DNA of 64,000 nucleotides from Chloroflexota bacterium (GTDB taxonomy: Bacteria; Chloroflexota; Limnocylindria; P2-11E). Positions 27,507 through 57,377 of the stretch are shown piece after piece. The stretch covers positions 10,233 to 74,232 of the forward strand of contig JAGWSB010000001.1 of assembly GCA_028876375.1 (NCBI GenBank), given 5' to 3'. Made by a program: the position numbers and the translations under genes. Each line of letters starts with the position of its first letter. Position 1 is the stretch's first letter. The notes beneath the pieces are model-generated. The model saw only the letters and a list, made by a program, of their open reading frames with translations. It was not told the origin of the DNA and searched no databases.

Positions 27507-28778
27507 ATGCGGCCGGTCACGGTGGGAACGAAGGGCGTCGACGCGTACGCGCGGCTCGTCGGCGAGGAGAAGATCGACGAGATCCGCCGTCTCGCCGAGC
27601 CGCTCCGCGGCGCGCGCGTCCTCCACGTGAACGCGACGGCGTACGGCGGGGGCGTCGCCGAGATCCTGAGCAACCTGGTGCCGCTGATGAACGACGTCGG
27701 GCTCGAGGCGCTGTGGTACGTCCTCGATGCTCGGGATCCGACGTTCTTCGACGTCACGAAGCGGATCCACAACGCGCTGCAGGGCATGCCGCTCGACCTG
27801 TCCGACCAGATGCGCGAGCTCTTCCTCGAGACGGACCGCGCGAACGCGGCGCAGCTGCCCGACGTCGACTTCGTCATCGCCCACGATCCGCAGGCCATCG
27901 CCCTGCGCCACTTCGCGTCGGCCTCGGAGGCCTCGTGGGCGTGGCGCTGCCACATCGACCTCACCGACGCCTACACGCCGGTCTGGTCGTTCCTGCGCCC
28001 CTACGTGGAGGCGCACGACGCCGCGATCTTCACCATGCCGCAGTTCGCTCAGCCCGACCTCACCCTCGATCGCATCGTCTTCAGCGCGCCGTCGATCGAT
28101 CCCTTCACCGAGAAGAACGGTCCGCTCGCGGCGGACGAAGCACGCGCCATCGTCGCCGCGTTCCGGCTCGATCCGGCGCGGCCGCTGCTCGTCCAGGTCT
28201 CGCGGTTCGATCCGTGGAAGGATCCGAACGGCGTTATCGACGTTTATCGGCGGGTCAAGGCGGAGATCCCCGAGGTTCAGCTCGCGCTGATCGGATCGCT
28301 CGCCGACGACGACCCCGAGGGCAAGGACTTCCTCGCGCGCAGCATCGCGCACGCGGCCGGCGACCCCGACGTGCGCTGTCTCACCGACCTGGACGGCGTG
28401 CGCGACCGTGAGGTGAACGCCTTCCAGCGCTCGGCGACCGTCGTCATCCAGAAGTCCCTGCGTGAGGGCTTCGGGCTCGTCGTGGCGGAAGCGCTGTGGA
28501 AAGGGATCCCCGTCGTCGGTGGCGCCGTCGGCGGCATCCCCCTGCAGATCGTCGACGGCGAGACCGGGTACCTCGTGCGGACGGTCGAAGAGTGCGCCGA
28601 GCGGTGCCTGCGTCTCCTCCGCGACGCGGACCTGCGGTCGCGGATGGGCGCCGCGGGGCACGAGCGCGTGCGAGGGGAGTTCCTCATCACGCGCGACCTG
28701 CGCGACCACCTCCGCCTCTTCAGCGACCTGCGCGCGGCGAAGGGCGCCGTCGGAGGGACGCGGGCCCGCGTGGGCTAG
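27507..28778 (+). CDS. treT: GT4-family glycosyltransferase, probably trehalose glycosyltransferring synthase TreT
   Basis: N-terminal YARLVGEEKIDEIRRLAEPLRGARVLHVNATAYGGGVAEIL is the TreT-type N-domain. The C-terminal EGFGLVVAEALWKGIPVV is the GT4 motif. The start lies 10 nt after the treZ stop. Confidence 0.6.
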   Translation: MRPVTVGTKGVDAYARLVGEEKIDEIRRLAEPLRGARVLHVNATAYGGGVAEILSNLVPLMNDVGLEALWYVLDARDPTFFDVTKRIHNALQGMPLDLSDQMRELFLETDRANAAQLPDVDFVIAHDPQAIALRHFASASEASWAWRCHIDLTDAYTPVWSFLRPYVEAHDAAIFTMPQFAQPDLTLDRIVFSAPSIDPFTEKNGPLAADEARAIVAAFRLDPARPLLVQVSRFDPWKDPNGVIDVYRRVKAEIPEVQLALIGSLADDDPEGKDFLARSIAHAAGDPDVRCLTDLDGVRDREVNAFQRSATVVIQKSLREGFGLVVAEALWKGIPVVGGAVGGIPLQIVDGETGYLVRTVEECAERCLRLLRDADLRSRMGAAGHERVRGEFLITRDLRDHLRLFSDLRAAKGAVGGTRARVG

Positions 28779-29599
28779 GCCGGCCGCGCCTCGGGCCGCT
28801 CGAACGGCCGCGCCGTGGCGATGTGCTCCCCCTCCTGCCGCTTCGCCCGGTACATCGCGGCGTCGGCCGCGGCGACGACCTCCTCGGGATCGCGTCCGTC
28901 CGCCTCGCTGGCGATGCCGAACGACGCGCCGATCCGCATCGCCTGGGGCAGCTCGATCTCGCGCACGCCGCGCAGGACCCGGTCCGCCACGAACCGCGTG
29001 GTCGCGTGGTCGGCGCCGAGGAGCAGGAGGCAGAACTCGTCGCCCCCGACGCGCGCGGCCATGTCGGCCTGCCGCACGCACTGCCGGAGCACTCCGCCGA
29101 CGCGCGCGAGCGCGATGTCGCCGGCGGCGTGGCCGCAGCGGTCGTTCACCTGCTTGAAGCCGTCGAGGTCGACGTAGAGGAGCGCGAATCGCTCGCCCTT
29201 CTCGAACGCGACCTTCAAGCGCTCCTCGAAGGCGCGCCGGTTCGGCAGCGACGTGAGCATGTCCGTCAGCGCCAGGACACGGCTGCGCTCCGCGGCGCGG
29301 TAGGCGTCGGTGTACACGAGGAAGAAGCCGGCGGCGCCCGCCAGCAGCGCGCCGAAGAGCGGCACCTGATGCGCCGTGTCGAGGGCCTCGAGGTGCAGGT
29401 CGCCGAGGATCGCGGCCTCCGACAGGATGAACATGAACGAGGCGATGGCGGCGAGGATCCAGATGCGGCGCCAGGAGCCGGGGCGCGACCACGGGACGAT
29501 GCGGAAAAGGAAGAAGACGTTCACCAGGAGCGCGACGATGACGGCGAGGACGACGAGCTGATCGTACTGGCCGATCGCGACGGATGCGGCGCCCCTCAC
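28775..29599 (-). CDS. membrane-anchored diguanylate cyclase (GGDEF domain)
   Basis: Three N-terminal membrane helices, then a GGDEF domain with GGDEF spelled exactly (RVGGDEFCLLL) and the RxxD I-site region. Confidence 0.8.
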   Translation of the reverse strand: MRGAASVAIGQYDQLVVLAVIVALLVNVFFLFRIVPWSRPGSWRRIWILAAIASFMFILSEAAILGDLHLEALDTAHQVPLFGALLAGAAGFFLVYTDAYRAAERSRVLALTDMLTSLPNRRAFEERLKVAFEKGERFALLYVDLDGFKQVNDRCGHAAGDIALARVGGVLRQCVRQADMAARVGGDEFCLLLLGADHATTRFVADRVLRGVREIELPQAMRIGASFGIASEADGRDPEEVVAAADAAMYRAKRQEGEHIATARPFERPEARPA

Positions 29600-30548: not shown

Positions 30549-31463
30549 CTGCCGCTCCCGACCCCGCTCGTCCGCAGCGAGGGCCTCGCGGCGACGCTCG
30601 GGCTCGACGTGCGCCTCAAGCTCGAGTCGCTGCTCCCCACGAGCGCGTTCAAGGTCCGCGGCGGCGTCAACCTCGTCGGACGCGACCCGACGGCGCGCGC
30701 GGGGATCATGGGCGCGTCGACCGGGAACCACGGCCAATCGCTCGCGTGGGCGGGACGCCTCTTCGGCGTGCCGGTGACGATCTACTGCCCCATCGGGTCG
30801 AACCCCATCAAGGTCGCGTCCATGCGCGCGCTGGGGGCGACCGTCGTCGAGCACGGCGCGGATTACGACGAAGCGCGGGTCGAATGCGAGAGGCGCGCGG
30901 CCGAGCTGGGACGCCGCTACGTCCATTCCGGCGACGAGCCTTACCTCATCGCGGGCGTCGCGACCGCGACGCTCGAGGTCCTCGAGGCCTGGCCGGAGGT
31001 CGACGTGCTCGTCGTCCCCATCGGCGGAGGCAGCGGCGCGTCCGGCGTTGCCGTCGTGGCCAAGGCGCTCGCGCCGAACGTGCGGGTGATCGGCGTCCAG
31101 TCCGAGGGCGCGCCCGCGGCCTATCTGTCGTGGCGCGCGGGCCGGCTCGAGACGACGGACGCCGTCCGCACCTTCGCCGACGGGCTCGCGACGCGGACGG
31201 CCTTCGCGCTGCCGCAGCGCATCCTGCGCGAACGCCTCGACGATTTCGTCCTCGTGAGCGACGACGACCTGCGCCGCGCGATGCGCGCGCTCCTCCTCGA
31301 CGCGCACGTCGTCGCCGAGGGCGCCGGCGCGGCCGCGACCGCGGGGGCGTGGAAGCTGCGCCAGGGCCTGCGCGACAAGCGGGTCGCGCTGTGGGTGAGC
31401 GGAGCGAACGCGACGGACCGCTCGCTCGCCGACGCGCTCGCCGCGGGGCCGCTCAGCGCCTAG
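30474..31463 (+). CDS. PLP-dependent threonine/serine dehydratase-like enzyme, short form without an ACT domain (GTG start; alternative at 30495)
   Basis: PLP-lysine motif SAFKVRGG, glycine-rich loop GGGSGASG, and the fold-type II order of blocks. About 330 aa. Confidence 0.7.
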   Translation: MATATRSDVPTLDDVREARAFIAPHLPLPTPLVRSEGLAATLGLDVRLKLESLLPTSAFKVRGGVNLVGRDPTARAGIMGASTGNHGQSLAWAGRLFGVPVTIYCPIGSNPIKVASMRALGATVVEHGADYDEARVECERRAAELGRRYVHSGDEPYLIAGVATATLEVLEAWPEVDVLVVPIGGGSGASGVAVVAKALAPNVRVIGVQSEGAPAAYLSWRAGRLETTDAVRTFADGLATRTAFALPQRILRERLDDFVLVSDDDLRRAMRALLLDAHVVAEGAGAAATAGAWKLRQGLRDKRVALWVSGANATDRSLADALAAGPLSA

Positions 31464-33249
31464 CCAGCCACTCCCGCAGCTCGGCCGCGGCCAGCGGCGG
31501 GCTCACCAGGTAGCCCTGCACCGCGGAGCAGCCGATCGACGCGATCAGGTCGTACGTGAGTCGATCCTCGACGCCTTCCGCGACCGTGTGCAACCCGAGG
31601 TCGCAGGCGAGGCCGATCGTCGCGCGCAGGATGGCACGAGCGCGCGGATCGCCGGCCGCGCGGCGCACGAAGGATCGGTCGAGCTTCACCTCGTCGATCG
31701 GCAGGTCGTCCAGATACGCGAGCGACGAGTAGCCGGTGCCGAAGTCGTCGACGGATACGTGGATGCGCGCCTCGCGGAACTCGCGCAGCACGGGGACGAT
31801 GGCCGCCATGTCGCGGGCGACGACGCTCTCGGTCACTTCGACCGTGAATCGGTCGCCCGGGAGCCCGTGCGCCGCGAGGAGGCTCGTGACCCGCTCGGGC
31901 AGCGTCGCGTCGGTGAGGTCCAGCGTGGAGACGTTCACCGCGACGCGCGCTCCGTCGCGTCCGAGGCCCCACTCGCGCACCGCCGCCTCGAGTATCCGGT
32001 CGGTCAGGCCGCCGATCAGGCCCGTGCGCTCGGCGAGCCGCACGAACTCGTCGGGGGCGATCACGCCGCGCGTCGGGTGGGTCCAGCGCGCGAGCGCCTC
32101 GGCGCCGACGAACCTCCCCGTCGCCGGATCGACCTGCGGCTGGAAGACCACGCCGATGTGGTCCCCCTCGATCGCCTCCTGCAGGTCCGCGACGAGCGCC
32201 AGGCGCTCGGGCGAGCTGTGCGCGAGCGAGTCCGAATAGACGACCGAGGTGCGTCCCGCGGCGCGTGCGCTCGACAGCGCGATCGTCACGCGCCGAAGCA
32301 GCTCCGCCGCCCTCTCGTCCGCGCGCGCGACGGCGACCCCGGTGCTGCCGGTGACGGCGACGCGCACGCCGTCGATCCCGAATGGGAGCGCGAGGGCGTC
32401 CAGCACGCGCCGCCCGAGCACGGGACCGTCTCCGATCGGAACGAAAGTGGCGAGGCAGAACTCGTCGCCGCCGATCCGTCCGAGGACCGCCGGCATGGCC
32501 ACGACGCGCTCCAGCCGTGACGGGATGCGCTCGAGGAGAAGGTCGCCGGCGCCGTAGCCGAAGGTGTCGTTGAACTCGTGGAACTCGGCGATGTTCAGCG
32601 CGACCGCGGCGAGCTCGGCGCCGGGCGGAGGCGCCTCGCGCATCAGCCCCTCGAGCTCACGCTCGAGCTCGACGCGCGTGGGGATGCCCGTCAGCCCGTC
32701 GTAGGACGTCTGCCGCCGCAGATCCTCGAGCGCGAGAGCGCGCGCCTGCTCGGCCTCGGCGCGCGCGGCGACCTCGACGCGCAGCTCGGTGACGAGCGTG
32801 TTCACGCGCGCCAGGGCGACGGCGAGCGCGAGGCTGACGAACACGGCGGTCGACAGGTCCGTCGTGTTGATGGGTCCGGACGTGACGCCGACGGCGGACA
32901 TCGCCTCCTCCGCCGCGAACGCCACGGCGGTGACGGCGAGACCGGCGCGGAGCCCGAGCAGCACGGCAGCCGCGGCGATGGGGATCACGGCGAGGTGGAT
33001 CGCGTCGTCGCCGATGAGCCGGTCGACCAGCGGGAACGCGACGAGGAACGCGACGCCCGCGGCGACCACCAGGAGCCGTGAGGTCAGCGGGCCCGGGCGG
33101 GCTCGCAGCGCCGTCGCCCGAGGTGAGTGTTGCTGAACGACGAGCTGGAAGACGCTCGAGGCGCGCGCGACCGCGTCGTTCAGCCCGACCACCGCGGACG
33201 ATCGTCGCCGCGCCGACCGCCGTTCAGCAGGGTCGCTGGTACCCATCGG
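31453..33249 (-). CDS. membrane-bound GGDEF-EAL protein (diguanylate cyclase/phosphodiesterase). The start is uncertain; the ORF is open to 33339.
   Basis: N-terminal hydrophobic helices, a GGDEF domain (RIGGDEFCLATF), then an EAL domain with the EVTE and DDFGTGYSSL motifs. Confidence 0.8.
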   Translation of the reverse strand, partial: PMGTSDPAERRSARRRSSAVVGLNDAVARASSVFQLVVQQHSPRATALRARPGPLTSRLLVVAAGVAFLVAFPLVDRLIGDDAIHLAVIPIAAAAVLLGLRAGLAVTAVAFAAEEAMSAVGVTSGPINTTDLSTAVFVSLALAVALARVNTLVTELRVEVAARAEAEQARALALEDLRRQTSYDGLTGIPTRVELERELEGLMREAPPPGAELAAVALNIAEFHEFNDTFGYGAGDLLLERIPSRLERVVAMPAVLGRIGGDEFCLATFVPIGDGPVLGRRVLDALALPFGIDGVRVAVTGSTGVAVARADERAAELLRRVTIALSSARAAGRTSVVYSDSLAHSSPERLALVADLQEAIEGDHIGVVFQPQVDPATGRFVGAEALARWTHPTRGVIAPDEFVRLAERTGLIGGLTDRILEAAVREWGLGRDGARVAVNVSTLDLTDATLPERVTSLLAAHGLPGDRFTVEVTESVVARDMAAIVPVLREFREARIHVSVDDFGTGYSSLAYLDDLPIDEVKLDRSFVRRAAGDPRARAILRATIGLACDLGLHTVAEGVEDRLTYDLIASIGCSAVQGYLVSPPLAAAELREWLARR

Positions 33250-33357
33250 CAAGGTCCAACGCCCCCTTCGCGATCGAGATGGACACGGGTGTGTCGGAGG
33301 AACGCGACACCGCCGGGAGAAGCCTCCCGGCGGTGTCATTCGCGTACCGATCGCGTG

Positions 33358-34170
33358 CTATTGGACGATGAGGACGGCCCACATTCCGGCGGCGTAGTGG
33401 CCGGGCTCGTCGCAGACGACGACGTACGTGCCCGGAGTGAGGTCGATCTCGTTGCCGCTGAAGCGGCCCGCGTCGATGTCCCCCACCTCTCCGACGCTGA
33501 GGCTCTCGTTGATCTTCGTCGGATCGTTCGGATCGAGCGGCAGCGCGTTCGCCGCCTGCGTCGTCTTGATGAAGACGGCCTCGTGCATGACCGCTCCGGT
33601 GTTCTGCGCCTCGACGACCACCGGTCCCGCCGGGATCGTCGTCGCGGGCAGCTCCATCTTCATCGGGTCGGCGAGCGTGATGGGGAAGAACGTCGCCACG
33701 GTCAGCTCCGTGTACATGCCCGCGGCGTAGTGGCCGGGCTGGTTGCAGATGAGCTGGTAGCGCCCGGGAGCGAGGTTGAGGGTCACCGAGACGGTCTTGC
33801 CCGCGTCGACGTCACCGGTCTCGCCCGCGCTGCCCGTTTCGAGGACGCGGCTCTTGTTGGTCGGGTCGATGGGGAGGGCTCCCGGAGCGGCGTCGGTCTT
33901 GATGAACACGACCTCATGCGTCTCGGCGCCGACGTTCGTGACGTCGAACGTCACCGGCCCCGCCGGGACGTAGTCGTAGCCCGTCGCGATCTTCATCTCG
34001 CTGAGGGTGATCGGGTAGTGCTCCGTCGCGAGCGTGACGTCCGCCGTGGTGGAGTGACTGCCGACCCCCACGCTGCTCGCGGCGGCGGCGGGCGCCGCCG
34101 GGAGGAGCGCGATGGCGAGCGAGGCCGCGAGGACCCCGATGGAGCGCGCGGAATGTCGGGTCGCTGACAT
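33358..34170 (-). CDS. secreted tandem double-cupredoxin (two type-1 copper domains)
   Basis: Signal peptide MSATRHSARSIGVLAASLAIALLPAAPAAAA, followed by two homologous roughly 110 aa domains. Each domain carries H (ETHEVVF / VMHEAVF) plus the C-x-x-P-G-H-Y-A-A-G-M ligand set, i.e. His, Cys, His, Met. Confidence 0.7.
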   Translation of the reverse strand: MSATRHSARSIGVLAASLAIALLPAAPAAAASSVGVGSHSTTADVTLATEHYPITLSEMKIATGYDYVPAGPVTFDVTNVGAETHEVVFIKTDAAPGALPIDPTNKSRVLETGSAGETGDVDAGKTVSVTLNLAPGRYQLICNQPGHYAAGMYTELTVATFFPITLADPMKMELPATTIPAGPVVVEAQNTGAVMHEAVFIKTTQAANALPLDPNDPTKINESLSVGEVGDIDAGRFSGNEIDLTPGTYVVVCDEPGHYAAGMWAVLIVQ

Positions 34171-34190
34171 TGCGGTGTTCCTTGCCTTTC

Positions 34191-34682
34191 TTATGGGGTA
34201 CCGCTCTTGGGAGCGGGAACGGACCTGAGGTAGGCGCTGATGGCGGCGATGTCCGCGTCCGTCAGGGTCTCCGCGAACCGCGGCATGCCCTCGGGCCCCT
34301 TGTGGACGCGGTCGCTGATGGCCGCGGCGCTCACGCCCGCGATGGCCGGCCCGACGACGCCGCCCTGGCCCTCCAGGCCGTGGCAGGTGACGCAGCCCTC
34401 CGTCACGAAGAGGCGCTCGCCCGTCGCGACCTGGTCCGCGCTCGCCGGCACGGCGCCGCCGACGCCGCCGTAGGGCACCGGCGCGCCGACGACGACCTGG
34501 TCGGTACGGGTGTAGGCGCTGTCGTAGCTGAGGTCGAGATTCGAGTGCGTGTACGGACCGGTCGCTCCCGCGATCAGGAGCGTGAGGCTCACGACGAGGA
34601 CGAACGCGGCGATGGCCCGAGGAACGACGTAGCTGACGCGAGGCGTGCCGGGGGCGTACGGGGCCGATGACCTCGCGCTCAT
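34191..34682 (-). CDS. membrane-anchored mono-haem cytochrome c
   Basis: 163 aa with an N-terminal membrane helix and a single CVTCHG haem-binding motif. Its ATG overlaps the upstream stop as ATGA. Confidence 0.75.
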   Translation of the reverse strand: MSARSSAPYAPGTPRVSYVVPRAIAAFVLVVSLTLLIAGATGPYTHSNLDLSYDSAYTRTDQVVVGAPVPYGGVGGAVPASADQVATGERLFVTEGCVTCHGLEGQGGVVGPAIAGVSAAAISDRVHKGPEGMPRFAETLTDADIAAISAYLRSVPAPKSGTP

Positions 34683-35293
34683 GCCGACCGCCTCGAGGCC
34701 GCCGTGATGCGGAAGAGCGTCACGACGACGGAGCCGTAGACGGACCAGATGATCATCAGGACCACGGCCACGGGCCATCCGGAGAAGCGCGGCCACAGCG
34801 CCGCGAGCCCGGGCAGGAGCGCGGCGCTCGAGCCCGGGGACGTGGGCGCCTGGTTGAATCCGGGCAGCTTCACTCCCGCGCCCTGCGCATAGAGCTGTGC
34901 GCCCACCTGCACATCCATCGAGGCGGTCGCGGAGGACGGCGCGTGCTGCGCGTCGCCGGCGTAGACGGCGGTGAGCTCGATCGTCCCTTCGCTGCGCAGG
35001 TCGATCTGCGTCGACGCGATGCCCGCCTTGTCGGTCTTCGCGTCGGCGACGGCCACGTTGCTCGTCGCCTCGAGGAAGCCGAGCTTCGCGGTGAACGTGA
35101 CGAGGACCCCCTCGAGCGGCTTGCCCGAGGCGTCGGTGACCTGCGCCTGCACCTGGGCGGCCTCGCCGAGCTGCGCGCTCGCGGGGACCGCGATGCGCAT
35201 CTTGGTCGGCGCGGGGCCGGCCGCGGCCGCCACCGCCGGGGTCAGCGCGACGATCGCGAGCGTCGCCAGAAGGACCCTGAGCACGCGCTTCAT
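34679..35293 (-). CDS. secreted Ig-like-domain protein with a C-terminal membrane anchor (function unknown)
   Basis: 204 aa. It has a signal peptide MKRVLRVLLATLAIVALTPAVAAAAG, a roughly 100 aa beta-rich domain of Big/invasin type, and a C-terminal hydrophobic helix WPVAVVLMIIWSVYGSVVVTLF. It is ATGA-coupled to both neighbours. Confidence 0.6.
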   Translation of the reverse strand: MKRVLRVLLATLAIVALTPAVAAAAGPAPTKMRIAVPASAQLGEAAQVQAQVTDASGKPLEGVLVTFTAKLGFLEATSNVAVADAKTDKAGIASTQIDLRSEGTIELTAVYAGDAQHAPSSATASMDVQVGAQLYAQGAGVKLPGFNQAPTSPGSSAALLPGLAALWPRFSGWPVAVVLMIIWSVYGSVVVTLFRITAASRRSA

Positions 35294-36708
35294 GGCCGCA
35301 CCCCCTCGCTCTCCAACGCGGCGGCGGTCGCCACCGGGGCGAAGCCGGGTCGCACCTCGGGCCGCACGCGTCGCACGTCCGCCGGCGCCGGTGCGCCGGG
35401 CTCGGGTCCGCGGTGCTCGACGACCTCCCAGATGGAGATGATCGGGAAGACCTTCGCGAAGACGGAGATGATGAGCATGAAGAGCGCGACCGCCCCCGCC
35501 AGGATCGACCACTCCACCAGCGTCGGGAAGTAGTTGCGCGCGTCGTAGGCCATGAGCGGCACGCGGAAGCCCGGCACGACGATGAGGAAGCGCTCGATCC
35601 ACATCGCCACGAGGACGAGGACCGCGGCAACGGTGATCCCCGCGATCGTCCGCGTGCGCGGGTAGAGCATGATCAGCCCCGGGATGACCATCCCGCCGAT
35701 CCAGTAGTAGATGTAGGCCGGCGCGAACGGACCGGTCATCAGCTCGGCGAAGTGGAACGTCTGCCCGGACTCCATCTTGTAGCCCGAGACGACGAGCTCC
35801 TGCAGGTTGAAGTAGGCCATGATCAGCGTGAAGGCCGCGAGCATGTAGCCGAGGTAGAGGAACTGCGTCCGCGTGATCCACTCCTCGAGGTGGAGGAGCT
35901 TCCGCAGGACGGCCATGAGAATGATGATCGCCGCGATCCCCGAGAAGATCGCTCCGGCGACGAAGAACGGCCCGAAGACCGTCGAGTTGAAGGCCACGCG
36001 GAGGGTCATCGCGAAGATCCAGGAGACCACGGTGTGCACCGACACCGCGACCGGGATGATGACGATCATCATCGTGGTCATCGCGCGGTCGAGGAGCTTC
36101 CTCTGCTCCGGCGTTCCGCGCCACCCGAGCGCGGCGACCTCGTAGAAGACACGCCGCCAGCGCGGCGCCGTGGGACCCAGGCGGTCGCGCGCGAGCGCGA
36201 AGTCCGGGATGATCGGCAGGTAGAGGTAGAGGGTGCTGCCGGTCAGGTAGGTGGTGATGGCGAAGATGTCCCACATGAGCGGCGACTGCCAGCGCCCGTA
36301 CTGGAGGAGCCCGAGGACGCGGTCGACCCGGCCCATGTCGATGAGCGGGAAGAGGGCGCCGACCATGAGCGCGACGACCGTGATGAACTCGGCCATGCGC
36401 GTGACGGACATCTGCCAGCGCGCCTTGGTCACGCGCAGGATCGCCGAGAGCAGCGTCCCGGCGTGGCTGATGCCGATGAAGAAGACGAAGCTGATGATGT
36501 AGACGCCCCACGAGATGCGGTCGCGCATCCCGGTGACGATCAGGCCGTTGTTGAGCTGGGTCGCGTACTGATACACGGCCCACGCGATCACCAGCACGAG
36601 GAAGCCGATCCACGCCCAATAACGGGCGCCGGTGCTCCGAAGGGGCGCGAGGCCGCGCGTCTCGAGCCGCTCGCGCCACGCGGGGGGCACGTACGCTACC
36701 TCTGCCAC
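35290..36708 (-). CDS. NrfD/PsrC-family polytopic membrane subunit (quinone-interacting). The GTG start at 36708 is preceded by a GGAGGTG Shine-Dalgarno box.
   Basis: About 470 aa with 10 or more membrane helices and NrfD-like topology. It overlaps the ferredoxin gene by about 13 nt. Confidence 0.7.
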   Translation of the reverse strand: MAEVAYVPPAWRERLETRGLAPLRSTGARYWAWIGFLVLVIAWAVYQYATQLNNGLIVTGMRDRISWGVYIISFVFFIGISHAGTLLSAILRVTKARWQMSVTRMAEFITVVALMVGALFPLIDMGRVDRVLGLLQYGRWQSPLMWDIFAITTYLTGSTLYLYLPIIPDFALARDRLGPTAPRWRRVFYEVAALGWRGTPEQRKLLDRAMTTMMIVIIPVAVSVHTVVSWIFAMTLRVAFNSTVFGPFFVAGAIFSGIAAIIILMAVLRKLLHLEEWITRTQFLYLGYMLAAFTLIMAYFNLQELVVSGYKMESGQTFHFAELMTGPFAPAYIYYWIGGMVIPGLIMLYPRTRTIAGITVAAVLVLVAMWIERFLIVVPGFRVPLMAYDARNYFPTLVEWSILAGAVALFMLIISVFAKVFPIISIWEVVEHRGPEPGAPAPADVRRVRPEVRPGFAPVATAAALESEGVRP

Positions 36709-37565
36709 GGGATCGCACCTCCGATCGTCTTCTGCCATGGCCATTCGGTCGGCTTGCGCCCGGTCGTCGTCGGCTTGCGGCCGGCGAGCTCACCGTGTCC
36801 GGGGATGTAGTGGACGCGCGGCTCCGTCCCGAGGTCCTCCTTGAGCCGGTAGCCGTTGTTCTCCGTGAGGAAGCGCGACATCTTCACGACCTCGCTGCCG
36901 TTCGTCGCCAGGTCCTCCTCGAGGTCGCCGTAGTAGATCGCGCCGCGCGGGCAACCCTGCGCGCAGTACGGGAGGCGTCCCGCGCGCGCCATGTCCGGGC
37001 AGAAGTCGCACTTCATGACCGTCCCGCGGATCGCCGGCGTCTGGTGCTCGGGCGAGTAGTCCATGAACAGCGACTGCGGCGGCTGCGCCGGCGAGCCCCA
37101 GTTGAAGAAGCGGCGGTCGTACATGCAGGCCTCCATGCAGAGGCGGCAGCCGATGCAGCGCTGCTGGTCGATGAGGACGGTGCCCTCGGGCGTCGCGAAG
37201 GTCGCTCCGACGGGGCACACGTTCACGCACGGCGCGTTCTGGCAGTGCTGGCAGGGGGTGGGGATGAACTGCGTCCCCGCCTGCTCGGCGAGAGGCGCCT
37301 CGTACACCTGGATCCACTCCATCGGCTCGGGCGCGAAGTGGCCCTGGATGCACGCCTCCGTGCACTGCGGCGGCTTTCCGATGGACTGGCAGCCGTCGCA
37401 CTTGCGGAGGTCGATGACCATCGACCACCGCCGCAGGCGGCCGGGCGTCCCCGCCGCCGTCGGCGACGCCGTCGCCAGGCGCGACGACGCGAGCGGCGCC
37501 GCGACCGCGCCGACGGCGGCGACGGCGAGGCCGCGCAGGAGAGACCGGCGTCCGAGGATCCCCAC
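36696..37565 (-). CDS. Tat-exported 4Fe-4S ferredoxin subunit (NrfC/PsrB/ActB-type, four clusters)
   Basis: Twin-arginine signal GRRSLLRGLAVAAVGAVAAPLA. Four Cys clusters are present: CDGC..C..C, CQHCQNAPCVNVCP, CIGCRLCMEAC and CDFC..CAQGCP. The GTG start sits 2 nt after the upstream stop. Confidence 0.75.
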   Translation of the reverse strand: MGILGRRSLLRGLAVAAVGAVAAPLASSRLATASPTAAGTPGRLRRWSMVIDLRKCDGCQSIGKPPQCTEACIQGHFAPEPMEWIQVYEAPLAEQAGTQFIPTPCQHCQNAPCVNVCPVGATFATPEGTVLIDQQRCIGCRLCMEACMYDRRFFNWGSPAQPPQSLFMDYSPEHQTPAIRGTVMKCDFCPDMARAGRLPYCAQGCPRGAIYYGDLEEDLATNGSEVVKMSRFLTENNGYRLKEDLGTEPRVHYIPGHGELAGRKPTTTGRKPTEWPWQKTIGGAIPWQR

Positions 37566-37567
37566 GC

Positions 37568-38251
37568 TCAGCTCCCGGTCACGGTCAGCGCCGTGTGCAT
37601 CCCGTCCTTGTAGTGGCCGTCGATGTTGCAGATGAGGTCGTAGGGGCCGCCCGCGAGCGTGAGCTTGAGGGTCGCCGTCGCGCCGACCGCGATGTTCTGC
37701 GCCTGACCGAGGAGCCCCGGCTCCTGCACCTGCTTCGGGTCGGTCGAGCTCAGCGGAAGCTGATCCTGTGGGACGCTCGTCTGGAGCACGACCAGCTCGT
37801 GCGGCACGTACCCGGAGTTCGTGATGGCGAAGGTGACGGGACCGGCCGGCACCGACGAGACGTCGAGCTTGATCGCCGTGTCCGTCAGCGTGACGTGGAT
37901 GGTCCCGCTGAAGGCCTGCGTCGGAGCCGGTGCCGCCGTCGTCGGAGGCGGCGTCGCCGCGGCGGACGTGGCCGGCGCCGGAGTGGCCGCGCTCGTTGCC
38001 TGGGACGTCGCCGCCGCGCTCGCGCTCGCCGATGCCGCGGCGCTCGGGCTCGGAGACGCCGACGCCGCGGTGCTGGCGCTCGCCGCCGCCGTCGTCGCCG
38101 TGCTCGCCGCCGCCGTCGTCAGCGGCGCGGACAGGGTCGCCACCGGGCGCGCCACCGTCGCCGTGGGCGACGGCACGACGCTCGTACCGCCGGCACCGCC
38201 ACAGGCGCCGAGCAGAACGAGGCATGCCCAGAGCGCCGATACCTTCCTCAC
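37568..38251 (-). CDS. lipoprotein cupredoxin (type-1 copper) with a long Ala/Ser/Thr/Pro linker
   Basis: Lipobox LVLLGAC. A roughly 90 aa low-complexity linker precedes a cupredoxin domain with the HELVV....CNIDGHYKDGM ligands. A strong GAAGGAGGA Shine-Dalgarno box lies 8 nt before the GTG at 38251. Confidence 0.65.
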   Translation of the reverse strand: MRKVSALWACLVLLGACGGAGGTSVVPSPTATVARPVATLSAPLTTAAASTATTAAASASTAASASPSPSAAASASASAAATSQATSAATPAPATSAAATPPPTTAAPAPTQAFSGTIHVTLTDTAIKLDVSSVPAGPVTFAITNSGYVPHELVVLQTSVPQDQLPLSSTDPKQVQEPGLLGQAQNIAVGATATLKLTLAGGPYDLICNIDGHYKDGMHTALTVTGS

Positions 38252-38403
38252 GTTCGCGTGTCCTCCTTCGCGGACCGGCCGGATCGCCGCCGTCGTCATG
38301 ACCGCGACGATGGCGGCGAAGCGCGCCGCGCCGAAGGGACGGTGGGGCTGGACCCGCGCGGCGTTCGGGCAAAGACGCCCCGCCCGACGGGTGGCCTACC
38401 CGG

Positions 38404-38470
38404 ACTATCGGAACGGATGGCTATAGGGGCCGTCCGGCCGCCGCCCGGTGTAGGACGGCCTATCAGCCCG
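38404..38470. promoter_or_regulatory. candidate operator in the divergent promoter region between the respiratory operon and the two-component system
   Basis: Three copies of a CT(A/G)AT(A/C)GG-like heptamer are present: CTATCGG, CTATAGG and CCTATCAG. There is also an imperfect inverted repeat ATAGGGGCCGTCC ... GGACGGCCTAT about 18 nt apart. Confidence 0.3.
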
Positions 38471-38501
38471 GGCCGTTCGGCCTCACTCGGCGAGGCAGGA
38501 G

Positions 38502-39442
38502 GTGGGTAGCCTCGCGAACGACATGGGTGCGCTCCGCCTGCGCTGGATCGCGGTCGTGGTGCCCGTCATCGCGGTCGGCATCCTCGACCTCGTCACCGAT
38601 CACGAGTGGAGCGACATCGTGAACGAGCCGCTCAATACGCTCGCCGTCCCGGTCATCGTGCTGCTCGGCGCGATCCTCATGGCCGACGTCGCCTTCGGCC
38701 GCATCGACCGCCTCACCTCGGCGCTGCGCGAGCGCAACGCCGCCCTCGAGCAGCGGGAGCGCGAGAACGAGCGTCTCCAGCGGCAGCTCCGCGAGCTCGC
38801 GGTGCGCAGCGAGCGCGAGCGCATCGCGCGCGAGATGCACGACGGCCTCGTGCAGGTGCTCGGCTACGTCAACACGAAGGCGCAGGCGGTCGAGGAGCTC
38901 CTCGCCGTCGAGCGGCCGGACGAGGCGCGCCGACAGCTCGGCGAGCTCGCCGCCGCGGCCCGCTCGGTGTACGTCGACACGCGCGCCGCGATCCTCGGCC
39001 TCGCGGACCCCGTGAGCCTCGACCAGGGCGTCGCGTCCGCGCTCGAGGAGTACGCCCGCCGCTTCGCGGACAGCTCCAAGCTCGCCGTCACGATCGACGC
39101 GTCCGCCGCCGCACGTTCGACCCGCCTTGCGCCCGACATCGAGGCACACGTCTTCCGCATCGCGCAGGAGGCGCTGACGAACGTCCGCAAGCACGCGACG
39201 GCGCGCCGCGCGGCGGTGCGTCTCGAGGTCGATGACCGCCAGCTCACGCTCGCGGTCGAGGACGACGGGTCCGGCTTCGACAGCGCGTCGACGCCCGCAC
39301 CCGACTGGCCGCACTACGGCATGCGTGCCATCCGCGAGCGCGCCGCGGCGATCGAGGGGTCGGCGGAGTGGTCGAGCCGGCCGGGCGCCGGCACGCTCTT
39401 CCGGCTGCGACTGCCTCTCGGCGCCGCGCGGAGCGCAGCGGT

Positions 39443-39446
<4 letters not shown>
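38502..39446 (+). CDS. sensor histidine kinase, HisKA_3 (NarX/DesK-like) family
   Basis: Two N-terminal membrane helices with almost no extracytoplasmic loop, a coiled-coil, the H-box ERERIAREMHDGLVQ, and a HATPase_c domain (DDGSGF, GMRAIRERAAAIEG). Confidence 0.8.
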
Positions 39447-41862
<2,416 letters not shown>

Positions 41863-41968
41863 GCACGAGCCGCTTCGATGTCAGCATACCGCCGTCAGAC
41901 GCGCGCCCGACACGATCCGTCGCTCGTCGAAAGCGCCGGAAAGCGCGGCTTCGACCGGAAAGCGCGGC

Positions 41969-49096: not shown

Positions 49097-49136
49097 CGGG
49101 AGCGTCACGGAGCGCTCCTCGTCGTCGTGTGCAGCG

Positions 49137-49210
49137 GAGCGGGAGACGGGATTCGGACCCGCGACCCTTACCTTGGCAAGGTAATGCTCTACCAAGCTGA
49201 GCTACTCCCG
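49137..49210 (-). tRNA. tRNA-Gly (anticodon GCC)
   Basis: On the minus strand the sequence GCGGGAGTAGCTCAGCTTGGTAGAGCATTACCTTGCCAAGGTAAGGGTCGCGGGTCCGAATCCCGTCTCCCGCT folds as a cloverleaf with anticodon loop TTGCCAA. The 3' CCA is not encoded. Confidence 0.85.
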
Positions 49211-49309
49211 CGTGACCAGAGGACCTGGACGCGTCGATGATACCAGGCGACGCCGCTGCCCGACCCGTGCTCACTACGGTCTGACGCGAGGAGGATCACC
49301 GGAGCGGCG

Positions 49310-53555: not shown

Positions 53556-54230
53556 TTGATGGCCACCACGTTCCCGGAGCTCGACACGCGGGATCTCCCC
53601 GTAGGCGCGCACGCCGCCTCGATCGCCGCGGCGATCGACGGCCTCTCAGTAGGCGGCTCGTTCATTCTCGTCGCGGCCGACGACCCGCGGCCGCTCCTCG
53701 GGCGGCTGAAGGCGGACGGCCACTCGGGGATCGAGTGGAGCGTCCTCGAGCTCGGACCCGAGCGCTTCCGCGTCGAGGTCCGCTCGCGCGTCGGGCCCCG
53801 CACGGTCACCGACTTCCTCGAGGGCGACCATCAGCGTCTCGACGCGATCCTCCAGCAGGTCGCGCGCCTGTCGGCGGACGGCGAGGACGACGAGGCGCGC
53901 GAGCGCTTCGCCGAGTTCGAGACCGGGCTCGGCTGGCACATCGACGTCGAGGAAGAGGTCCTCTTCCCCGCTTTCGAGACGAACACCGGGAGCACGAACG
54001 GGCCGACGACGTTCATGCGCACCGAGCACGTGGCGATCCGCCAGCTGCTCGTCGCGTGCGGCGCCGCGGTGGCTGGCGCCGGCGACGTGCAGCGCGCGAT
54101 CGACGAGCTCGGGAAGGCCCTCGCCGCGCACAACCTGAAGGAGGAGCAGGTCCTCTATCCGGTGTCGGACCACGCCGTCGGCGGCGACGCCGAGCGAGAG
54201 GAGCTCGTCGAGAAGATCCAAGCGTTCTGA
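53556..54230 (+). CDS. DUF2249 plus hemerythrin-like (HHE cation-binding) domain protein
   Basis: An N-terminal DUF2249-like region ([39 protein letters not shown]) is followed by a hemerythrin-like region carrying H/E ligand positions ([30 protein letters not shown]). Confidence 0.6.
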
Positions 54231-54239
54231 TCGGCGGCC

Positions 54240-55901
54240 CTATCGATCCATGTAGTTGACGGGATACGAGCCGTCCGGGAAGGCCCTGCTGTCGAAAGAC
54301 AGGGTGAAGGTCTCGCCGGGTTCGAGCCTCATGCCTCCGATCGCGTTGAGGTCGCCCTTGCTCGCGCTTGCGAACGTCGTCGCGTCGGTGGCGCGGAGAA
54401 CGACGTCGCGCCCGCTGAAGCGCTCGAGCGTCCCCTGACCGCCGGAGATGCGGGCGCGGACAGTACACGCGCTCTCGACCGCGACGACCGTCGCGCTCGT
54501 CTTGAGGTGCTGGATCTCGGCCGGGACGTGCGGATCCGGCGGCGTCAGGAAGACGTTGCACGGCGCAGGTGGCGCGGGCGCGAGGAGCACGTCGCGCGCG
54601 GCCTCGACACGCACGACGTCCATCGGCGCGAGCTCCTGGTGCATCGTCGCGAGGAGCGAGCCGTCCAGTGCGCTCAGGACGACGATGTTCCGCGAGCTGT
54701 CGTCCACGGCGTAGAGGCGTGTTCCGTCCGGCGCGAGGCCGAGGCTGTCGAACGACAGATCGCGCGCCCACATCGTGCGCTCGCGCAGCGACGTGGCGTC
54801 TATGACGACGAGGCCGGTGGTGCCCGCCGCGTAAAGCGTCCTCCCGTCGGGAGAGAGGCGTGCCCCGCCGCGCACGTAGCGCTTCGCCTCGGCGATCGGG
54901 AAGAGCGCGCGCAGAGCGGCTGGCGGATCGTCCTCGCTCGCGACCGGGATCCGCGCCGACCTCTTCAGGTTCATCGTGGGCGTCGTCGCGTCGATCTCAT
55001 CGATCCAGCCGAGCGCGGGATCGACCGCGTAGAGCGTCGCGCCGTCCGGAGACAGCGCGAGGCTCCAGAGCATGGACTTCTCGAAGTCGGACGAGGACTG
55101 GACGCCGGGGAGGTCGGTCTGGCTGATCCGGCGGCTGCCAAGATCGACCGTGCGGATGGACGGGCGCGCCGATCCGCCTCCGCTTTCTAGGAAGTACAGC
55201 CGCGCTCCATCCTTCGAGCGAACGGTCGCGCTCATGAAGCCATCGATCGGCGCATCGGCGCCCGGGAGCAGATCGCGTGACGCAGCGTCCCAGATGCGCA
55301 GACGGCTCTCACCGGCCCCGTATTGCGCTACCGCGACCGCGTCGCCTGCCGAGGCGATGCCGAGGACGGCGAGGGTCGTCGCGCCGCGATACTCGTTGCT
55401 CGCCCGCAGCGCGCCGCTCCGAAGATCGACGATGGCAAGGCCGCTCATCCACTCGTTGTCGATCTTCACCGCGCTGCGCGCGAGGACGAGCCACCGACCG
55501 TCGGCCGACGTCCCGATGGGGCCGTCGTTGGACTGTGCGAGGACCCAGTCGCCGTCGATCGTGAACGAGCGCTGCGTGTCGCCGGTCTCGGTGTCGATCT
55601 CGTCGATGCGCGTGCGCGTCGCGCCGTCGATGGCCTCGACGTGGTAGAGCTTGGAGCTGTCGGCGGACATGCTCCCTTCGGGGAGCGCGCCTTGGACCCG
55701 CGCGCTCCCGACGTCGATCCGCGTGACGTACGTGGTGACCGCGGTGTTGTACCCGGTCTCGCGCACATAGAGCGCGTCGCGGAGGCTGGAGGACGGCATC
55801 GGACCGGTCGTCGACGTCGAGCCCCGCGGCGCGCCACCCTGGACGACGCACGCCGCAGCAGCGAGCAAGAAGGTCAGGACCACGACTCGCCACGCACGCA
55901 T
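54240..55901 (-). CDS. secreted beta-propeller lipoprotein (YVTN/LVIVD-like repeats)
   Basis: Lipoprotein signal MRAWRVVVLTFLLAAAAC, then repeated G..LY.V / RL..SPDG.TLYA blocks typical of seven-bladed propellers. Confidence 0.6.
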   Translation of the reverse strand: MRAWRVVVLTFLLAAAACVVQGGAPRGSTSTTGPMPSSSLRDALYVRETGYNTAVTTYVTRIDVGSARVQGALPEGSMSADSSKLYHVEAIDGATRTRIDEIDTETGDTQRSFTIDGDWVLAQSNDGPIGTSADGRWLVLARSAVKIDNEWMSGLAIVDLRSGALRASNEYRGATTLAVLGIASAGDAVAVAQYGAGESRLRIWDAASRDLLPGADAPIDGFMSATVRSKDGARLYFLESGGGSARPSIRTVDLGSRRISQTDLPGVQSSSDFEKSMLWSLALSPDGATLYAVDPALGWIDEIDATTPTMNLKRSARIPVASEDDPPAALRALFPIAEAKRYVRGGARLSPDGRTLYAAGTTGLVVIDATSLRERTMWARDLSFDSLGLAPDGTRLYAVDDSSRNIVVLSALDGSLLATMHQELAPMDVVRVEAARDVLLAPAPPAPCNVFLTPPDPHVPAEIQHLKTSATVVAVESACTVRARISGGQGTLERFSGRDVVLRATDATTFASASKGDLNAIGGMRLEPGETFTLSFDSRAFPDGSYPVNYMDR

Positions 55902-55993
55902 CGTCTTCCCTACAGATCGCGCCGCTCGCTGGTTCCCGGCCGTGTGGGAACCCGCGCCGCGTGTCGTTGTATGGACCGTAGGATCCGACTCCT

Positions 55994-56557
55994 GTGGAGG
56001 GCCGACCACTGGAGCGACCGAGCGACGACGATCTCGTGGAGCGTGCGCGCAGCGGTGACAAGGACGCTTACGGCATCCTCGTCACGAGCTACGAGGCGCT
56101 CGCCTATCGGGTCGCCTATGCGATCACCAAGAGCGAGAGCGAGGCGGAGGATGCGGCGCAAGACGCGTTCGTGAAGGGGTACTTCGCGCTCGAGCGCTTC
56201 CGGGCCGGAGCGCCGTTCCGTCCCTGGATCCTCCGGATCGTCGCGAACGAGGCCAAGAACCGGCGCAACGCGGCGGCGCGCCGCCCGGCGCTGGAGCTGG
56301 ACGCCGCGGCGGACCGCGCCTCGAGCGAGACGGCCCTCTCGCCCGAGGACGCGGCGCTCGCGGCGGAGCGGCGCGTACGTCTCCTCGCCGCGGTGAACGG
56401 GCTGCGTGATGACGACCGCCTCGTCCTCACGTACCGCTACTTCCTCGATCTCTCCGAGGCGGAGATGGCGGACGTCCTCGGGATCGCGCGGGGCACGGTC
56501 AAGTCGCGCCTCTCGCGCGCGCTGGGGCGATTGCGCGAGGTGTACCGAGGTGCCTGA
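55994..56557 (+). CDS. ECF (sigma-70 family) RNA polymerase sigma factor; GTG start
   Basis: Regions 2 (YGILVTSYEALAYRVAYAITKSESEAEDAAQDAFVKGY) and 4 (LSEAEMADVLGIARGTVKSRLSRALGRLRE) are present. 187 aa. Confidence 0.8.
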   Translation: MEGRPLERPSDDDLVERARSGDKDAYGILVTSYEALAYRVAYAITKSESEAEDAAQDAFVKGYFALERFRAGAPFRPWILRIVANEAKNRRNAAARRPALELDAAADRASSETALSPEDAALAAERRVRLLAAVNGLRDDDRLVLTYRYFLDLSEAEMADVLGIARGTVKSRLSRALGRLREVYRGA

Positions 56558-57377
56558 GCTCGAGATGGATGACACCCAGCTCGCGTCGGCACTCGTCGAT
56601 CTTGGCGCTCACCTCGCGTACCCCGAGCGTCCGAGCATCCGAACAGCGGTCCTGCGTCGGATCGACGCGTCCAGCCGTCCCTCTCTCTGGGGGCGCATCG
56701 CGTCGCCTCGACGCGGCCTCGCACCGGCCCTGATCGCGCTCGCGCTCATCCTCGTCGCCGTCCTCGCGTCGGTCCCGGCCGCGCGCGCCACGGCGCAGGA
56801 GATCCTGCGGCTCCGAGGTGTTGAGATCTTCCGCGGCCCGACCGCGACCGCGTCGCCGACCCGCGCACCGACCGCGACGTCGGCGGGGGCGGCGCTCGGC
56901 CTCGGTGACCTCGTGTCGCTCGACGAGGCGGCTCGGCGGCTCGGCCACCCGCTGCTCGTCCCGAGCGATCAGATCCTCGGCGCGCCGGACGAGGTGTACG
57001 TCTTCTCGCGCGGGTCCGTCACTGAGGTCTCGCTGGTCTACCTCTCGCGTCCGGGCATACCGCCATCCCCGCAGGCCCACGTCGCGGCCCTCGTGAGCGA
57101 GGTCACGGATGCCGCCGTTCAGCCCGCCTTCTTCGCCAAGGTGGCGGGGCAAGCGACGCGCATCGACGAGGTCACGGTGAACGACGGCCCGGGCTACTGG
57201 CTCGAGGGCGAGCCGCACGACGTCTTCTACCAGCTGGAAGGCACCGGGGGAGTGATCGATGAGCAGCTGCGCCTCGCCGGCAACACACTCTTGTGGGAGC
57301 AGAGTGGCGTGCTCGTGCGGATGGAGGCGCAAGTCGACAAGACGACCGCGCTGAGGATCGCGTCTTCGTTCCGCTAG
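56550..57377 (+). CDS. anti-sigma factor (single-pass membrane protein with a C-terminal extracytoplasmic domain). The start is the GTG at 56550 or the ATG at 56565.
   Basis: It immediately follows, and overlaps, the ECF sigma gene. A central membrane helix (LAPALIALALILVAVLASV) separates a short cytoplasmic N-terminus from a roughly 190 aa outer domain. Confidence 0.6.
   Translation: MPELEMDDTQLASALVDLGAHLAYPERPSIRTAVLRRIDASSRPSLWGRIASPRRGLAPALIALALILVAVLASVPAARATAQEILRLRGVEIFRGPTATASPTRAPTATSAGAALGLGDLVSLDEAARRLGHPLLVPSDQILGAPDEVYVFSRGSVTEVSLVYLSRPGIPPSPQAHVAALVSEVTDAAVQPAFFAKVAGQATRIDEVTVNDGPGYWLEGEPHDVFYQLEGTGGVIDEQLRLAGNTLLWEQSGVLVRMEAQVDKTTALRIASSFR

Follow-up and report, generated by a model that had tools for sequence, protein, structure and literature searches.

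A candidate four-subunit quinol:carrier oxidoreductase resembling alternative complex III in uncultured Chloroflexota

The window analysed in this study, a stretch of 64,000 nucleotides (64 kb) from a metagenome-assembled genome (MAG) of an uncultured Chloroflexota bacterium of soil or water (assembly GCA_028876375.1, contig JAGWSB010000001.1, positions 10,233 to 74,232), contains an operon of six genes, here termed g1 to g6, which in our judgement probably encodes a menaquinol:cytochrome c/cupredoxin oxidoreductase of reduced composition that is analogous to alternative complex III (ACIII) and organised around a core of four subunits. As judged from sequence, the conserved unit consists of an NrfC-like iron-sulfur protein, an ActC-like membrane subunit, an anchored protein with an immunoglobulin (Ig)-like domain and a monohaem cytochrome c, and the predicted cupredoxins encoded at either end of the operon are lineage-specific, exchangeable accessories on this core.

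Results

Organisation of the operon

The operon extends from position 33358 to 38251 on the minus strand of the window, whose GC content amounts to 66-75%, and consists of six packed co-directional open reading frames (ORFs). The first of them, g1 (37568-38251), begins with a GTG located 10 nt downstream of the Shine-Dalgarno sequence AGGAGG. GTG is also the start codon of g2 (36696-37565), which codes for 289 amino acids, and of g3 (35290-36708). In case of g3 an alternative ATG is found at 36744, but the GTG is the likelier start since the resulting 13-nt overlap with g2 is called likewise in homologous loci. These are followed by g4 (34679-35293), g5 (34191-34682) and g6 (33358-34170), and the junctions from g1 to g6 comprise a 2-nt gap, the 13-nt overlap, two ATGA overlaps and a 20-nt gap. 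An earlier interpretation made from the DNA itself (the sequence-only reading) had proposed precisely these junctions for six co-directional coupled genes, together with a succession of domains that is confirmed by our ORF and Pfam analysis, with cupredoxin, Fer4_11, NrfD, Big, cytochrome c and double cupredoxin domains all scoring above the Pfam gathering thresholds.

At its 3' end, the operon is followed by a GC-rich hairpin on the same strand (33306-33337), which lies 21 nt behind the stop codon of g6 and contains a perfect stem of 14 bp. Within a context of 73 nt, its folding energy of -39.3 kcal/mol corresponds to a z-score of -3.9 and was reached by none of 200 shuffled sequences. The hairpin, which we spotted by eye before folding it, probably marks the end of the operon transcript and thus fits a six-gene transcription unit. 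A scan for consensus promoters and terminators found no match in the operon, and the hairpin was missed by it since it lacks a U tract.

The predicted quinone-binding and iron-sulfur subunits

The central membrane protein g3 matches the Pfam family NrfD (PF03916) with 110 bits at a cutoff of 25.8. Its only matches in the PDB at E ≤ 0.01 are four chains of ActC (6f0k_C with 2e-55, 6btm_C, 6lod_C and 8k9e_C, extending to 1e-51), to which it aligns over its full length at about 31% identity, and a profile of the g3 family scores 249 bits against ActC compared to 37 bits against ActF and does not match PsrC. An AlphaFold2 (AF2) model of a naturally fused g3 homologue contains 10 transmembrane (TM) helices and was superimposed by Foldseek on ActC with a target TM-score of 0.78-0.82. 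We thus assign g3 as a predicted quinone-binding subunit of the NrfD family with 10 TM helices that is specifically of the ActC type. When the functional residues listed for Rhodothermus marinus ActC (PMC8076601 Table 2, Calisto and Pereira) are transferred to g3 by HMMER alignment, three of the four quinol-site positions are either identical (S164 to S142 and D169 to D147) or acidic (H139 to D124) and 12 of the 13 residues of the half-channel on the N-side are identical. The retained site and channel residues are invariant across an alignment of 11 sequences of the g3 family. These properties are in line with the proposal of the sequence-only reading that the NrfCD-like pair serves as a quinol module akin to ACIII, with the direction of electron flow inferred by analogy.

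The second member of this pair, g2, contains Fer4 domains only (Fer4_11, 71 bits) and carries 16 cysteines in four cluster motifs that are invariant in 42 homologues. Together with the twin-arginine motif GRRSLLRG this identifies it as a predicted ferredoxin of the NrfC/DsrO/ActB2 type, which would be exported by the twin-arginine translocation (Tat) pathway and bind four [4Fe-4S] clusters. Its relatives in the PDB are ArrB, PsrB and the C-terminal iron-sulfur half of ActB, with the alignment to the latter confined to residues ~780-1020.

The Ig-like subunit and the electron carriers

The two remaining core proteins differ strongly in their predicted equipment with cofactors. With no cysteine and a single histidine, g4 is predicted to be a cofactor-less Ig-like subunit of the Big_1/macroglobulin type (Big_3_5, 42 bits; Big_1, 40 bits), in which an N-terminal hydrophobic helix, either a signal or a TM segment, and a C-terminal TM helix enclose the Ig domain. 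Its AF2 model (predicted local distance difference test score 83.5) shows a beta-sandwich at residues 28-130 connected by a flexible but conserved linker to a helix at 161-203. A Foldseek search with this model found only generic Ig or macroglobulin (MG) domains and no respiratory subunit, and a search of the PDB with the sequence of g4 gave no match. The extent of the family is apparent only in profile searches, as a word-indexed search with g4 returned 13 close matches, compared to 47 representatives at E ≤ 1e-30 and 274 at E ≤ 1e-10 found with a profile among 1.84 billion sequences.

In g5, an N-terminal TM helix (residues 23-41) is directly followed by the juxtamembrane motif PYTHxNL...YxRT and by a haem domain (Cytochrome_CBB3, 49 bits, and Cytochrom_C) containing the only CxxCH of the operon. 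The ligands C97-x2-C100-H101 and the distal M133 are, like the PYTH motif, invariant in 28 homologues, and the protein is predicted to be a membrane-anchored monohaem cytochrome c of class I. The nearest PDB relative of the haem domain is the actinobacterial QcrC (7q21_C, E 8e-10); the matches listed at E ≤ 0.1, which include c6 and CcoP besides QcrC and proteins of similar kind, contain no ActE chain.

Both outer genes code for putative copper proteins, which between them contain three complete His...Cys-x4-His-x4-Met ligand sets. In g1 (SoxE, 29 bits; Cupredoxin_1, 28 bits), a signal peptide with the lipobox LGAC at residues 14-17 precedes a linker of ~90 residues rich in Ala, Ser, Thr and Pro and a single cupredoxin domain with the type-1 ligands H151 and C208-x4-H213-x4-M218, which are kept in the homologue from the related locus L001. 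It is thus predicted to be a lipoprotein with a type-1 (blue) copper site, for which no significant sequence match was found in the PDB. In g6, which carries a Sec-type signal, SoxE (56 bits) and Copper-bind (48 bits) each match two stretches, and the ligand sets H85/C142/H147/M152 and H196/C253/H258/M263 characterise it as a predicted secreted tandem double type-1 cupredoxin. It is weakly related to auracyanin B (1ov8, 1.2e-4) and to the blue copper protein 6kol as nearest PDB relatives, and all three share the copper loop C-x-x-PGHY-x-AGM. Further weak matches of g1 and g6 concern sulfocyanin, rusticyanin, the cupredoxin domain of EfeO and CopI. Collectively, the features of export and topology that had been claimed from the outset could be located in the proteins (the lipobox of g1, the Tat signal of g2, the TM anchors of g4 and g5 and the Sec signal of g6), and the Cys clusters and Cu ligands were all found to be present.

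A conserved core with exchangeable carriers

A search for metagenomic relatives of g3 yielded 7688 matches among 8000 candidates scored. The best 120 of these share 66-92% identity with the protein, and the nearest, at 91-92%, originate from MAGs of Chloroflexota. In databases such relatives are labelled as polysulfide reductase NrfD, HybB-like protein or molybdoenzyme membrane anchor, and the module is both widespread in uncultured bacteria and mis-annotated. When each GTDB species was represented by one genome, a scan provided 78 loci (numbered from L001), all from MAGs, which are mostly assigned to Chloroflexota, with many named Limnocylindria, and which include representatives of Gemmatimonadota, Acidobacteriota, Actinomycetota, Ignavibacteria and Bacteroidales. 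ORFs were called in all of these loci and searched with the six proteins of the window. The 22 loci with an NrfD score of at least 600 bits and enough flanking DNA, most of them from Limnocylindria, were treated as close relatives.

In all 22 close loci, the genes for the NrfC-like protein, the NrfD-like protein, the Ig protein and the monohaem cytochrome c are found in the same order. The conservation in related genomes concerns the four-gene core and not the full set, since the exact six-gene order including the upstream lipoprotein cupredoxin is restricted to the closest relatives L001 and L085. The gene following the cytochrome encodes a cupredoxin-like protein in 14 close loci, a di- or multihaem cytochrome c in two and neither of them in the remaining six. 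In Limnocylindria, this position is usually occupied by a lipoprotein of 333-375 residues with two Cupredoxin_1 domains (L008:10471-11520, L012:10439-11566, L019:10428-11501, L041:10562-11623, L059:10527-11528 and others), whose putative site, His(THE)...Cys-x13/14-His-x4-Gln without a Met, does not correspond to a classical type-1 loop. In L003, whose NrfD is 92% identical to g3, the tandem cupredoxin g6 is nevertheless absent and the position of g1 is taken by a lipoprotein with a Tat signal and a CuA-like HCxxxCx6HxxM motif (L003:6447-7118, HCDMECDSAKSGHWAM). Finally, L002, L084 and L031 contain class-I cytochromes c in place of the copper proteins, including a protein of 706 residues with seven CxxCH motifs, a swap that would be expected of interchangeable carriers.

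The diversity of the copper proteins also bears on a different interpretation, in which they would constitute the business end of the system and use electrons from quinol for extracytoplasmic metal chemistry, for example between Cu(II) and Cu(I) or on Fe(III), in defence against metal stress, with the two-component system encoded next to the operon acting as metal or envelope sensor. The variation between type-1, CuA-like (in L003) and C-x13-H-x4-Q sites would suit such a role, as would the weak NCBIfam matches of g1 and g6 to the copper-resistance protein CopI and to EfeO and a kinase with just two TM helices, as found in intramembrane-sensing stress kinases. However, the CopI and EfeO scores of 16-42 bits are far from the cutoffs of 200-280, the regulators are of the NarL and not of the CopRS/CusRS type, no genes for CopA, CusF or multicopper oxidases recur nearby and the core, at 65-92% identity, persists unchanged in loci that lack the copper proteins or have cytochromes c in their place, which makes this interpretation improbable.

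The association of the core proteins is further illustrated by natural gene fusions, which join NrfD to the Ig protein (~660 aa), NrfD to NrfC (~770-805 aa) and the Ig protein to the cytochrome c, the latter as Ig-cytochrome c in L031 and in the inverse order in Bacteroidales. The fusions of NrfD with the Ig protein and with NrfC and of the Ig protein with the cytochrome argue for the four core proteins being parts of one assembly. A distinct fusion is encoded by the third gene in relatives with 52-58% NrfD identity (L032:9364-10482, L036:9349-10512, L038:8934-10073 and L037:4912-6291), where an Ig domain is combined with two TM helices, the motif SPxTHxxL...xRTP and a C-terminal PSCyt1-like cytochrome c fold that is devoid of Cys and thus of any CxxCH, which characterises it as a haem-less pseudo-cytochrome.

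Separate from these comparisons, we noticed that modules can occur as paralogues, which may share one locus: GCA_041643075.1 contains two operons (L001 and L083), and L007 and L029 provide further cases. Each of these modules is equipped with separate carriers and in many cases with a separate two-component system.

More distant relatives from Ignavibacteria and Gemmatimonadota, with about 45% NrfD identity (L043:4383-11433 and L058:4379-10603), encode a pentahaem c7-like protein, a molybdopterin subunit of 755-779 residues, NrfC, NrfD, a tetrahaem cytochrome c and a beta-sandwich protein, and hence a fuller complex of the complex iron-sulfur molybdoenzyme (CISM) or ACIII-like kind with a split ActB-like arrangement. 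They place the family of the window among such fuller complexes. They also raise the possibility that the operon provides electron transfer and membrane anchoring for an ordinary CISM enzyme, whose catalytic subunit would be encoded elsewhere in the genome, as in these relatives the molybdopterin subunit and the pentahaem protein are located directly upstream of NrfC. The presence of moaA in the window (13926-14930) and of a molybdopterin operon about 7 kb upstream in L084 could be viewed in the same light. We nevertheless consider this very improbable. The operons of the 22 close loci contain no molybdopterin gene in any instance, and a tblastn search of the 64 kb window found no molybdopterin subunit, no second NrfD- or NrfC-like gene and no pentahaem gene (using the L043 protein as query for the latter), which agrees with the earlier claim that no such or other catalytic subunit is present. 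Moreover, the usual place of the catalytic subunit is filled by the conserved pair of Ig protein and cytochrome c, which in relatives is fused to the core, and the molybdopterin genes of L084 are set apart from the module by a two-component system.

Proposed mechanism and direction of electron flow

The reading that we favour, an ACIII-like menaquinol:cytochrome c/cupredoxin oxidoreductase, would operate as follows. Menaquinol would bind to g3 on the outer side of the membrane and become oxidised there, and its electrons would be transferred to the four [4Fe-4S] clusters of g2, from there to the haem of g5 and subsequently to the type-1 copper centres of the lipid-anchored g1 and of g6, which would in turn reduce a terminal oxidase or reductase whose genes are located elsewhere. 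The cofactor-less g4 might act as structural or docking subunit or as scaffold. Proton movement coupled to turnover is plausible in light of the conserved ActC channel residues, which would allow it without proving it. Expression of the operon would probably be controlled by the adjacent HisKA_3/GerE two-component system. Homology with structures of Psr and ACIII and the menaquinol:auracyanin activity of Chloroflexus ACIII, as cited in PMC3150298, are the grounds on which we infer physical association, carrier order, flow direction, proton coupling and the acceptor further downstream. Quinol oxidation is supported by the exclusively high-potential nature of the carriers of the operon, a class-I haem with His/Met ligation and type-1 copper, and by the kinship of g5 with QcrC, which constitutes the output haem subunit of the actinobacterial menaquinol:cytochrome c reductase.

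Several observations weigh against this mechanism. The quinol-site residue D253 of ActC is lost in g3, where I231 takes its place, and only three of the six residues of the half-channel on the P-side are identical, among them the central Glu-Arg pair E372-R373. For the cluster of g2 closest to the quinone site, the four Cys indicate a [4Fe-4S] and not a [3Fe-4S] cluster of higher potential, the latter of which is found at the corresponding position of ActB. A higher-potential [3Fe-4S] cluster was also reported for QrcC (PMC8076601 Table 1). The subgroup with a haem-less pseudo-cytochrome has no obvious carrier gene following it, and the proposed output route therefore cannot apply there. The host is possibly monoderm, in which case the soluble secreted g6 would need a docking site, and every carrier of the operon family is an uncultured organism represented by a MAG.

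The same residues raise the question of a reversed flow, where the proteins would form a cupredoxin/cytochrome c:menaquinone oxidoreductase comparable to Qrc, Nhc or Hmc and supply the quinone pool from a donor outside the cytoplasm. This donor could be Fe(II) or a different lithotrophic substrate that is oxidised at the copper proteins and, if its potential was high, the proton motive force would drive the reaction via the ActC-like channels. D124, located at the position of His139 of ActC, is shared with the quinone-reducing QrcD, NhcC and HybB, and the nearly intact half-channel on the N-side was in Qrc proposed as the route of cytoplasmic protons to the quinone site. However, the equivalent Asp is also found in DsrP and in PsrC of Wolinella (PMC8076601 Table 2), and since the latter oxidises quinol, the residue does not set the direction. 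The weak matches of g1 and g6 to sulfocyanin, rusticyanin and EfeO point to families linked to iron oxidation, and a separate sensor system for each paralogous operon would fit an induction by specific substrates, but neither Cyc2 nor a multicopper oxidase nor any other primary oxidase recurs beside the operon. Furthermore, QcrC and auracyanin, to which g5 and g6 are most closely related, receive their electrons after quinol has been oxidised, and menaquinone normally has a far less positive potential than type-1 copper and His/Met haem, so that a flow towards menaquinone would be strongly uphill. On these grounds, we regard a reversed flow as unlikely, though as the main rival of menaquinol oxidation.

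Relationship to known complexes

The resemblance to ACIII, as known from Rhodothermus, Flavobacterium, Roseiflexus and Chloroflexus, concerns the presence of an ActC homologue with most of the quinol-site and N-side channel residues, of an upstream gene for a periplasmic four-cluster iron-sulfur protein homologous to the C-terminal half of ActB, of a monohaem cytochrome c and of cupredoxins with an auracyanin-like copper loop in a host belonging to the Chloroflexota, where the ACIII of Chloroflexus was described as menaquinol:auracyanin oxidoreductase (Gao et al., 2009, as cited in PMC3150298). In contrast to ACIII, the operon lacks the pentahaem ActA, ActD, ActF and the molybdopterin-like N-terminal half of ActB, the latter being a fusion of molybdopterin-like and iron-sulfur parts with ~1000 residues compared to the 289 residues of g2. 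Further differences are found in the 16 cysteines of g2, which leave no three-Cys [3Fe-4S] motif, in the exchange of His139 for Asp and the loss of D253 in g3, in the Ig-domain subunit, which has no counterpart in ACIII, and in g5, which resembles QcrC and has no ActE chain among its listed PDB matches. A single NrfD gene per operon is likewise seen in the close loci. In function the module would thus be comparable to ACIII, but it does not belong to this group. With a four-cluster Tat ferredoxin and an adjacent cofactor-less NrfD subunit it equally shows the features of a CISM module of the NrfCD/PsrBC type; the Mo/W-bis(pyranopterin guanine dinucleotide) catalytic subunit of true CISM enzymes is absent from the operon, the window and the close loci.

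Among the NCBIfam models, g2 scores best with DsrO and g3 with DsrP, and the layout of a periplasmic cytochrome c, a four-cluster iron-sulfur protein and an NrfD-like subunit with 10 TM helices is reminiscent of DsrJOP (PMC8076601). Unlike DsrMKJOP, the operon includes no DsrM, DsrK or trihaem DsrJ and no context of sulfur metabolism, and its carriers are of high-potential types; the Pfam scan of the window genes equally found no DsrMKJ-like genes nearby. We have rejected an assignment as DsrOP on account of these missing partners and of scores below the cutoffs (177.5 bits at 200 and 133 bits at 350).

Similar considerations apply to Qrc, Nhc and Hmc, in which NrfC/NrfD-type pairs devoid of molybdenum join periplasmic cytochromes with menaquinone and which agree with g3 in the Asp of the quinone site and in the proton channel on the N-side (PMC8076601). 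Their partners are low-potential multihaem cytochromes and the quinone becomes reduced, whereas the operon contains neither the hexahaem QrcA nor QrcB nor any multihaem gene. The missing QrcA and QrcB and scores far below the cutoffs (QrcC, 117 bits at 400; QrcD, 42 bits at 570) led us to reject an assignment as Qrc.

Orphan NrfCD clusters were previously noted in Melioribacter roseus and in MBNT15 as pairs of NrfC- and NrfD-like proteins without a molybdopterin subunit, and genome papers have stated that such pairs function as quinol:acceptor reductases directed towards periplasmic cytochromes (PMC3534657, PMC9386147). These clusters, which are known from annotation only, differ by their multihaem partners tied to Fe(III) reduction and by the fact that their descriptions mention neither an Ig subunit nor a monohaem anchor cytochrome nor cupredoxins, and the loci that we have retrieved from Ignavibacteria are only about 45% identical in NrfD and include a molybdopterin subunit. 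QcrC of the actinobacterial bc1-aa3 supercomplex shares with g5 the principle of a membrane-anchored class-I cytochrome c that replaces a soluble one, but is a dihaem protein of a Rieske/cytochrome b complex, whereas g5 is monohaem and part of an NrfCD-type operon. A review of complexes containing NrfD distinguishes fourteen types, none of which has the composition of g1 to g6 (PMC8076601). We found no curated family for this gene set and no description of it in the literature, where only generic mentions of NrfCD clusters without molybdenum were retrieved and whose coverage in our search was incomplete, so that a prior mention elsewhere is possible. The impression of the sequence-only reading that the combination stands out is thus sustained for the complete set and has to be qualified with respect to modules of NrfCD and cytochromes without molybdenum, for which there is precedent.

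Genomic neighbourhood

The operon is accompanied by a divergently oriented two-component system, as the sequence-only reading had recognised. A sensor histidine kinase on the plus strand (38502-39446), with two N-terminal TM helices and the Pfam domains HisKA_3 and HATPase_c, overlaps by ATGA with a response regulator of the NarL/GerE type (39443-40069, plus strand; Response_reg 99 bits, GerE 72 bits), which, judging from the ORF and the homologue of 209 residues in L001, starts at MRLVVVDDH. The divergent arrangement of the kinase recurs in L001 and L083, and two-component proteins are the only recurrent families in 95 flanking ORFs (HATPase_c 11, Response_reg 9, HisKA_3 9, GerE 6), among which no oxidase, reductase or molybdopterin enzyme was found to recur. 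The intergenic region between g1 and the kinase (38252-38501) presumably harbours the promoters of both and sites for the regulator. It contains no match to a sigma-70 consensus but long blocks identical to L001 and L003 and repeated GGCCG..CGGCC and TAGGCC elements, which may be regulator sites; its conservation means little since the genomes of L001 and L003 are too closely related.

Downstream of the operon, two genes on the minus strand code for a GGDEF-EAL protein (31453-33339), which follows directly, and a GGDEF protein (28775-29599). The same neighbours are found in L001 and L003. Since the longest ORF of the GGDEF-EAL protein spans the hairpin behind g6, its true start is probably located further downstream. 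We consider it unlikely that it would be a seventh gene of the operon in light of the intervening hairpin and of the homologue in L001, which starts 243 nt downstream.

A Pfam search of about 30 other genes of the window did not reveal another respiratory complex. A thiamine pyrophosphate (TPP) riboswitch (41760-41867, minus strand; Rfam RF00059, 67.7 bits) is located upstream of thiC (40054-41769, minus strand), and genes for tRNA-Gly(GCC) and tRNA-Phe(GAA) are found on the minus strand at 49136-49211 and 58079-58152. A fusion of DUF2249 and hemerythrin (53556-54230, plus strand) adjoins a class-I fumarate hydratase and an iron transporter of the VIT family, which may constitute a context of O2, nitric oxide (NO) or iron sensing. 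Two ORFs with a coding-like GC content at third codon positions (54240-56009 on the minus and 56406-57377 on the plus strand) match no Pfam family at E ≤ 1e-5.

Discussion

Our study has described a gene module in which an ActC-like subunit, a four-cluster ferredoxin, an Ig-like protein and a monohaem cytochrome c are consistently combined, and it suggests a broader proposal, which we advance tentatively as something that is possible though still doubtful. The core might represent a family of quinol:carrier oxidoreductases that is widespread but hitherto unrecognised, of minimal composition and possibly proton-motive, that takes the role of complex III in Limnocylindria and in other uncultured Chloroflexota, Actinomycetota, Acidobacteriota, Gemmatimonadota and Bacteroidota, that is equipped with plug-in copper or haem carriers and that stands either at a stripped-down end or at an early stage of the ACIII lineage.

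If this proposal was correct, it would bear on the evolution of the scaffold of molybdenum enzymes into an analogue of complex III, and the module would offer a minimal natural system to investigate which parts of ACIII serve quinol oxidation and proton translocation by NrfD-type subunits, the latter of which is still debated (PMC8076601). The exchangeable carriers, the C-x13-H-x4-Q sites of cupredoxin-like proteins and the haem-less pseudo-cytochromes provide leads for work on metalloproteins. Metabolic reconstructions would change, as current labels such as polysulfide reductase or HybB-like protein would wrongly suggest a metabolism of sulfur or hydrogen. A large group of abundant uncultured bacteria of soil and freshwater would instead link their quinone pool to terminal oxidases by a machine of four subunits, which with one ActC-like protein, four iron-sulfur clusters and one haem would contain far fewer parts than either the bc1 complex or the seven-subunit ACIII.

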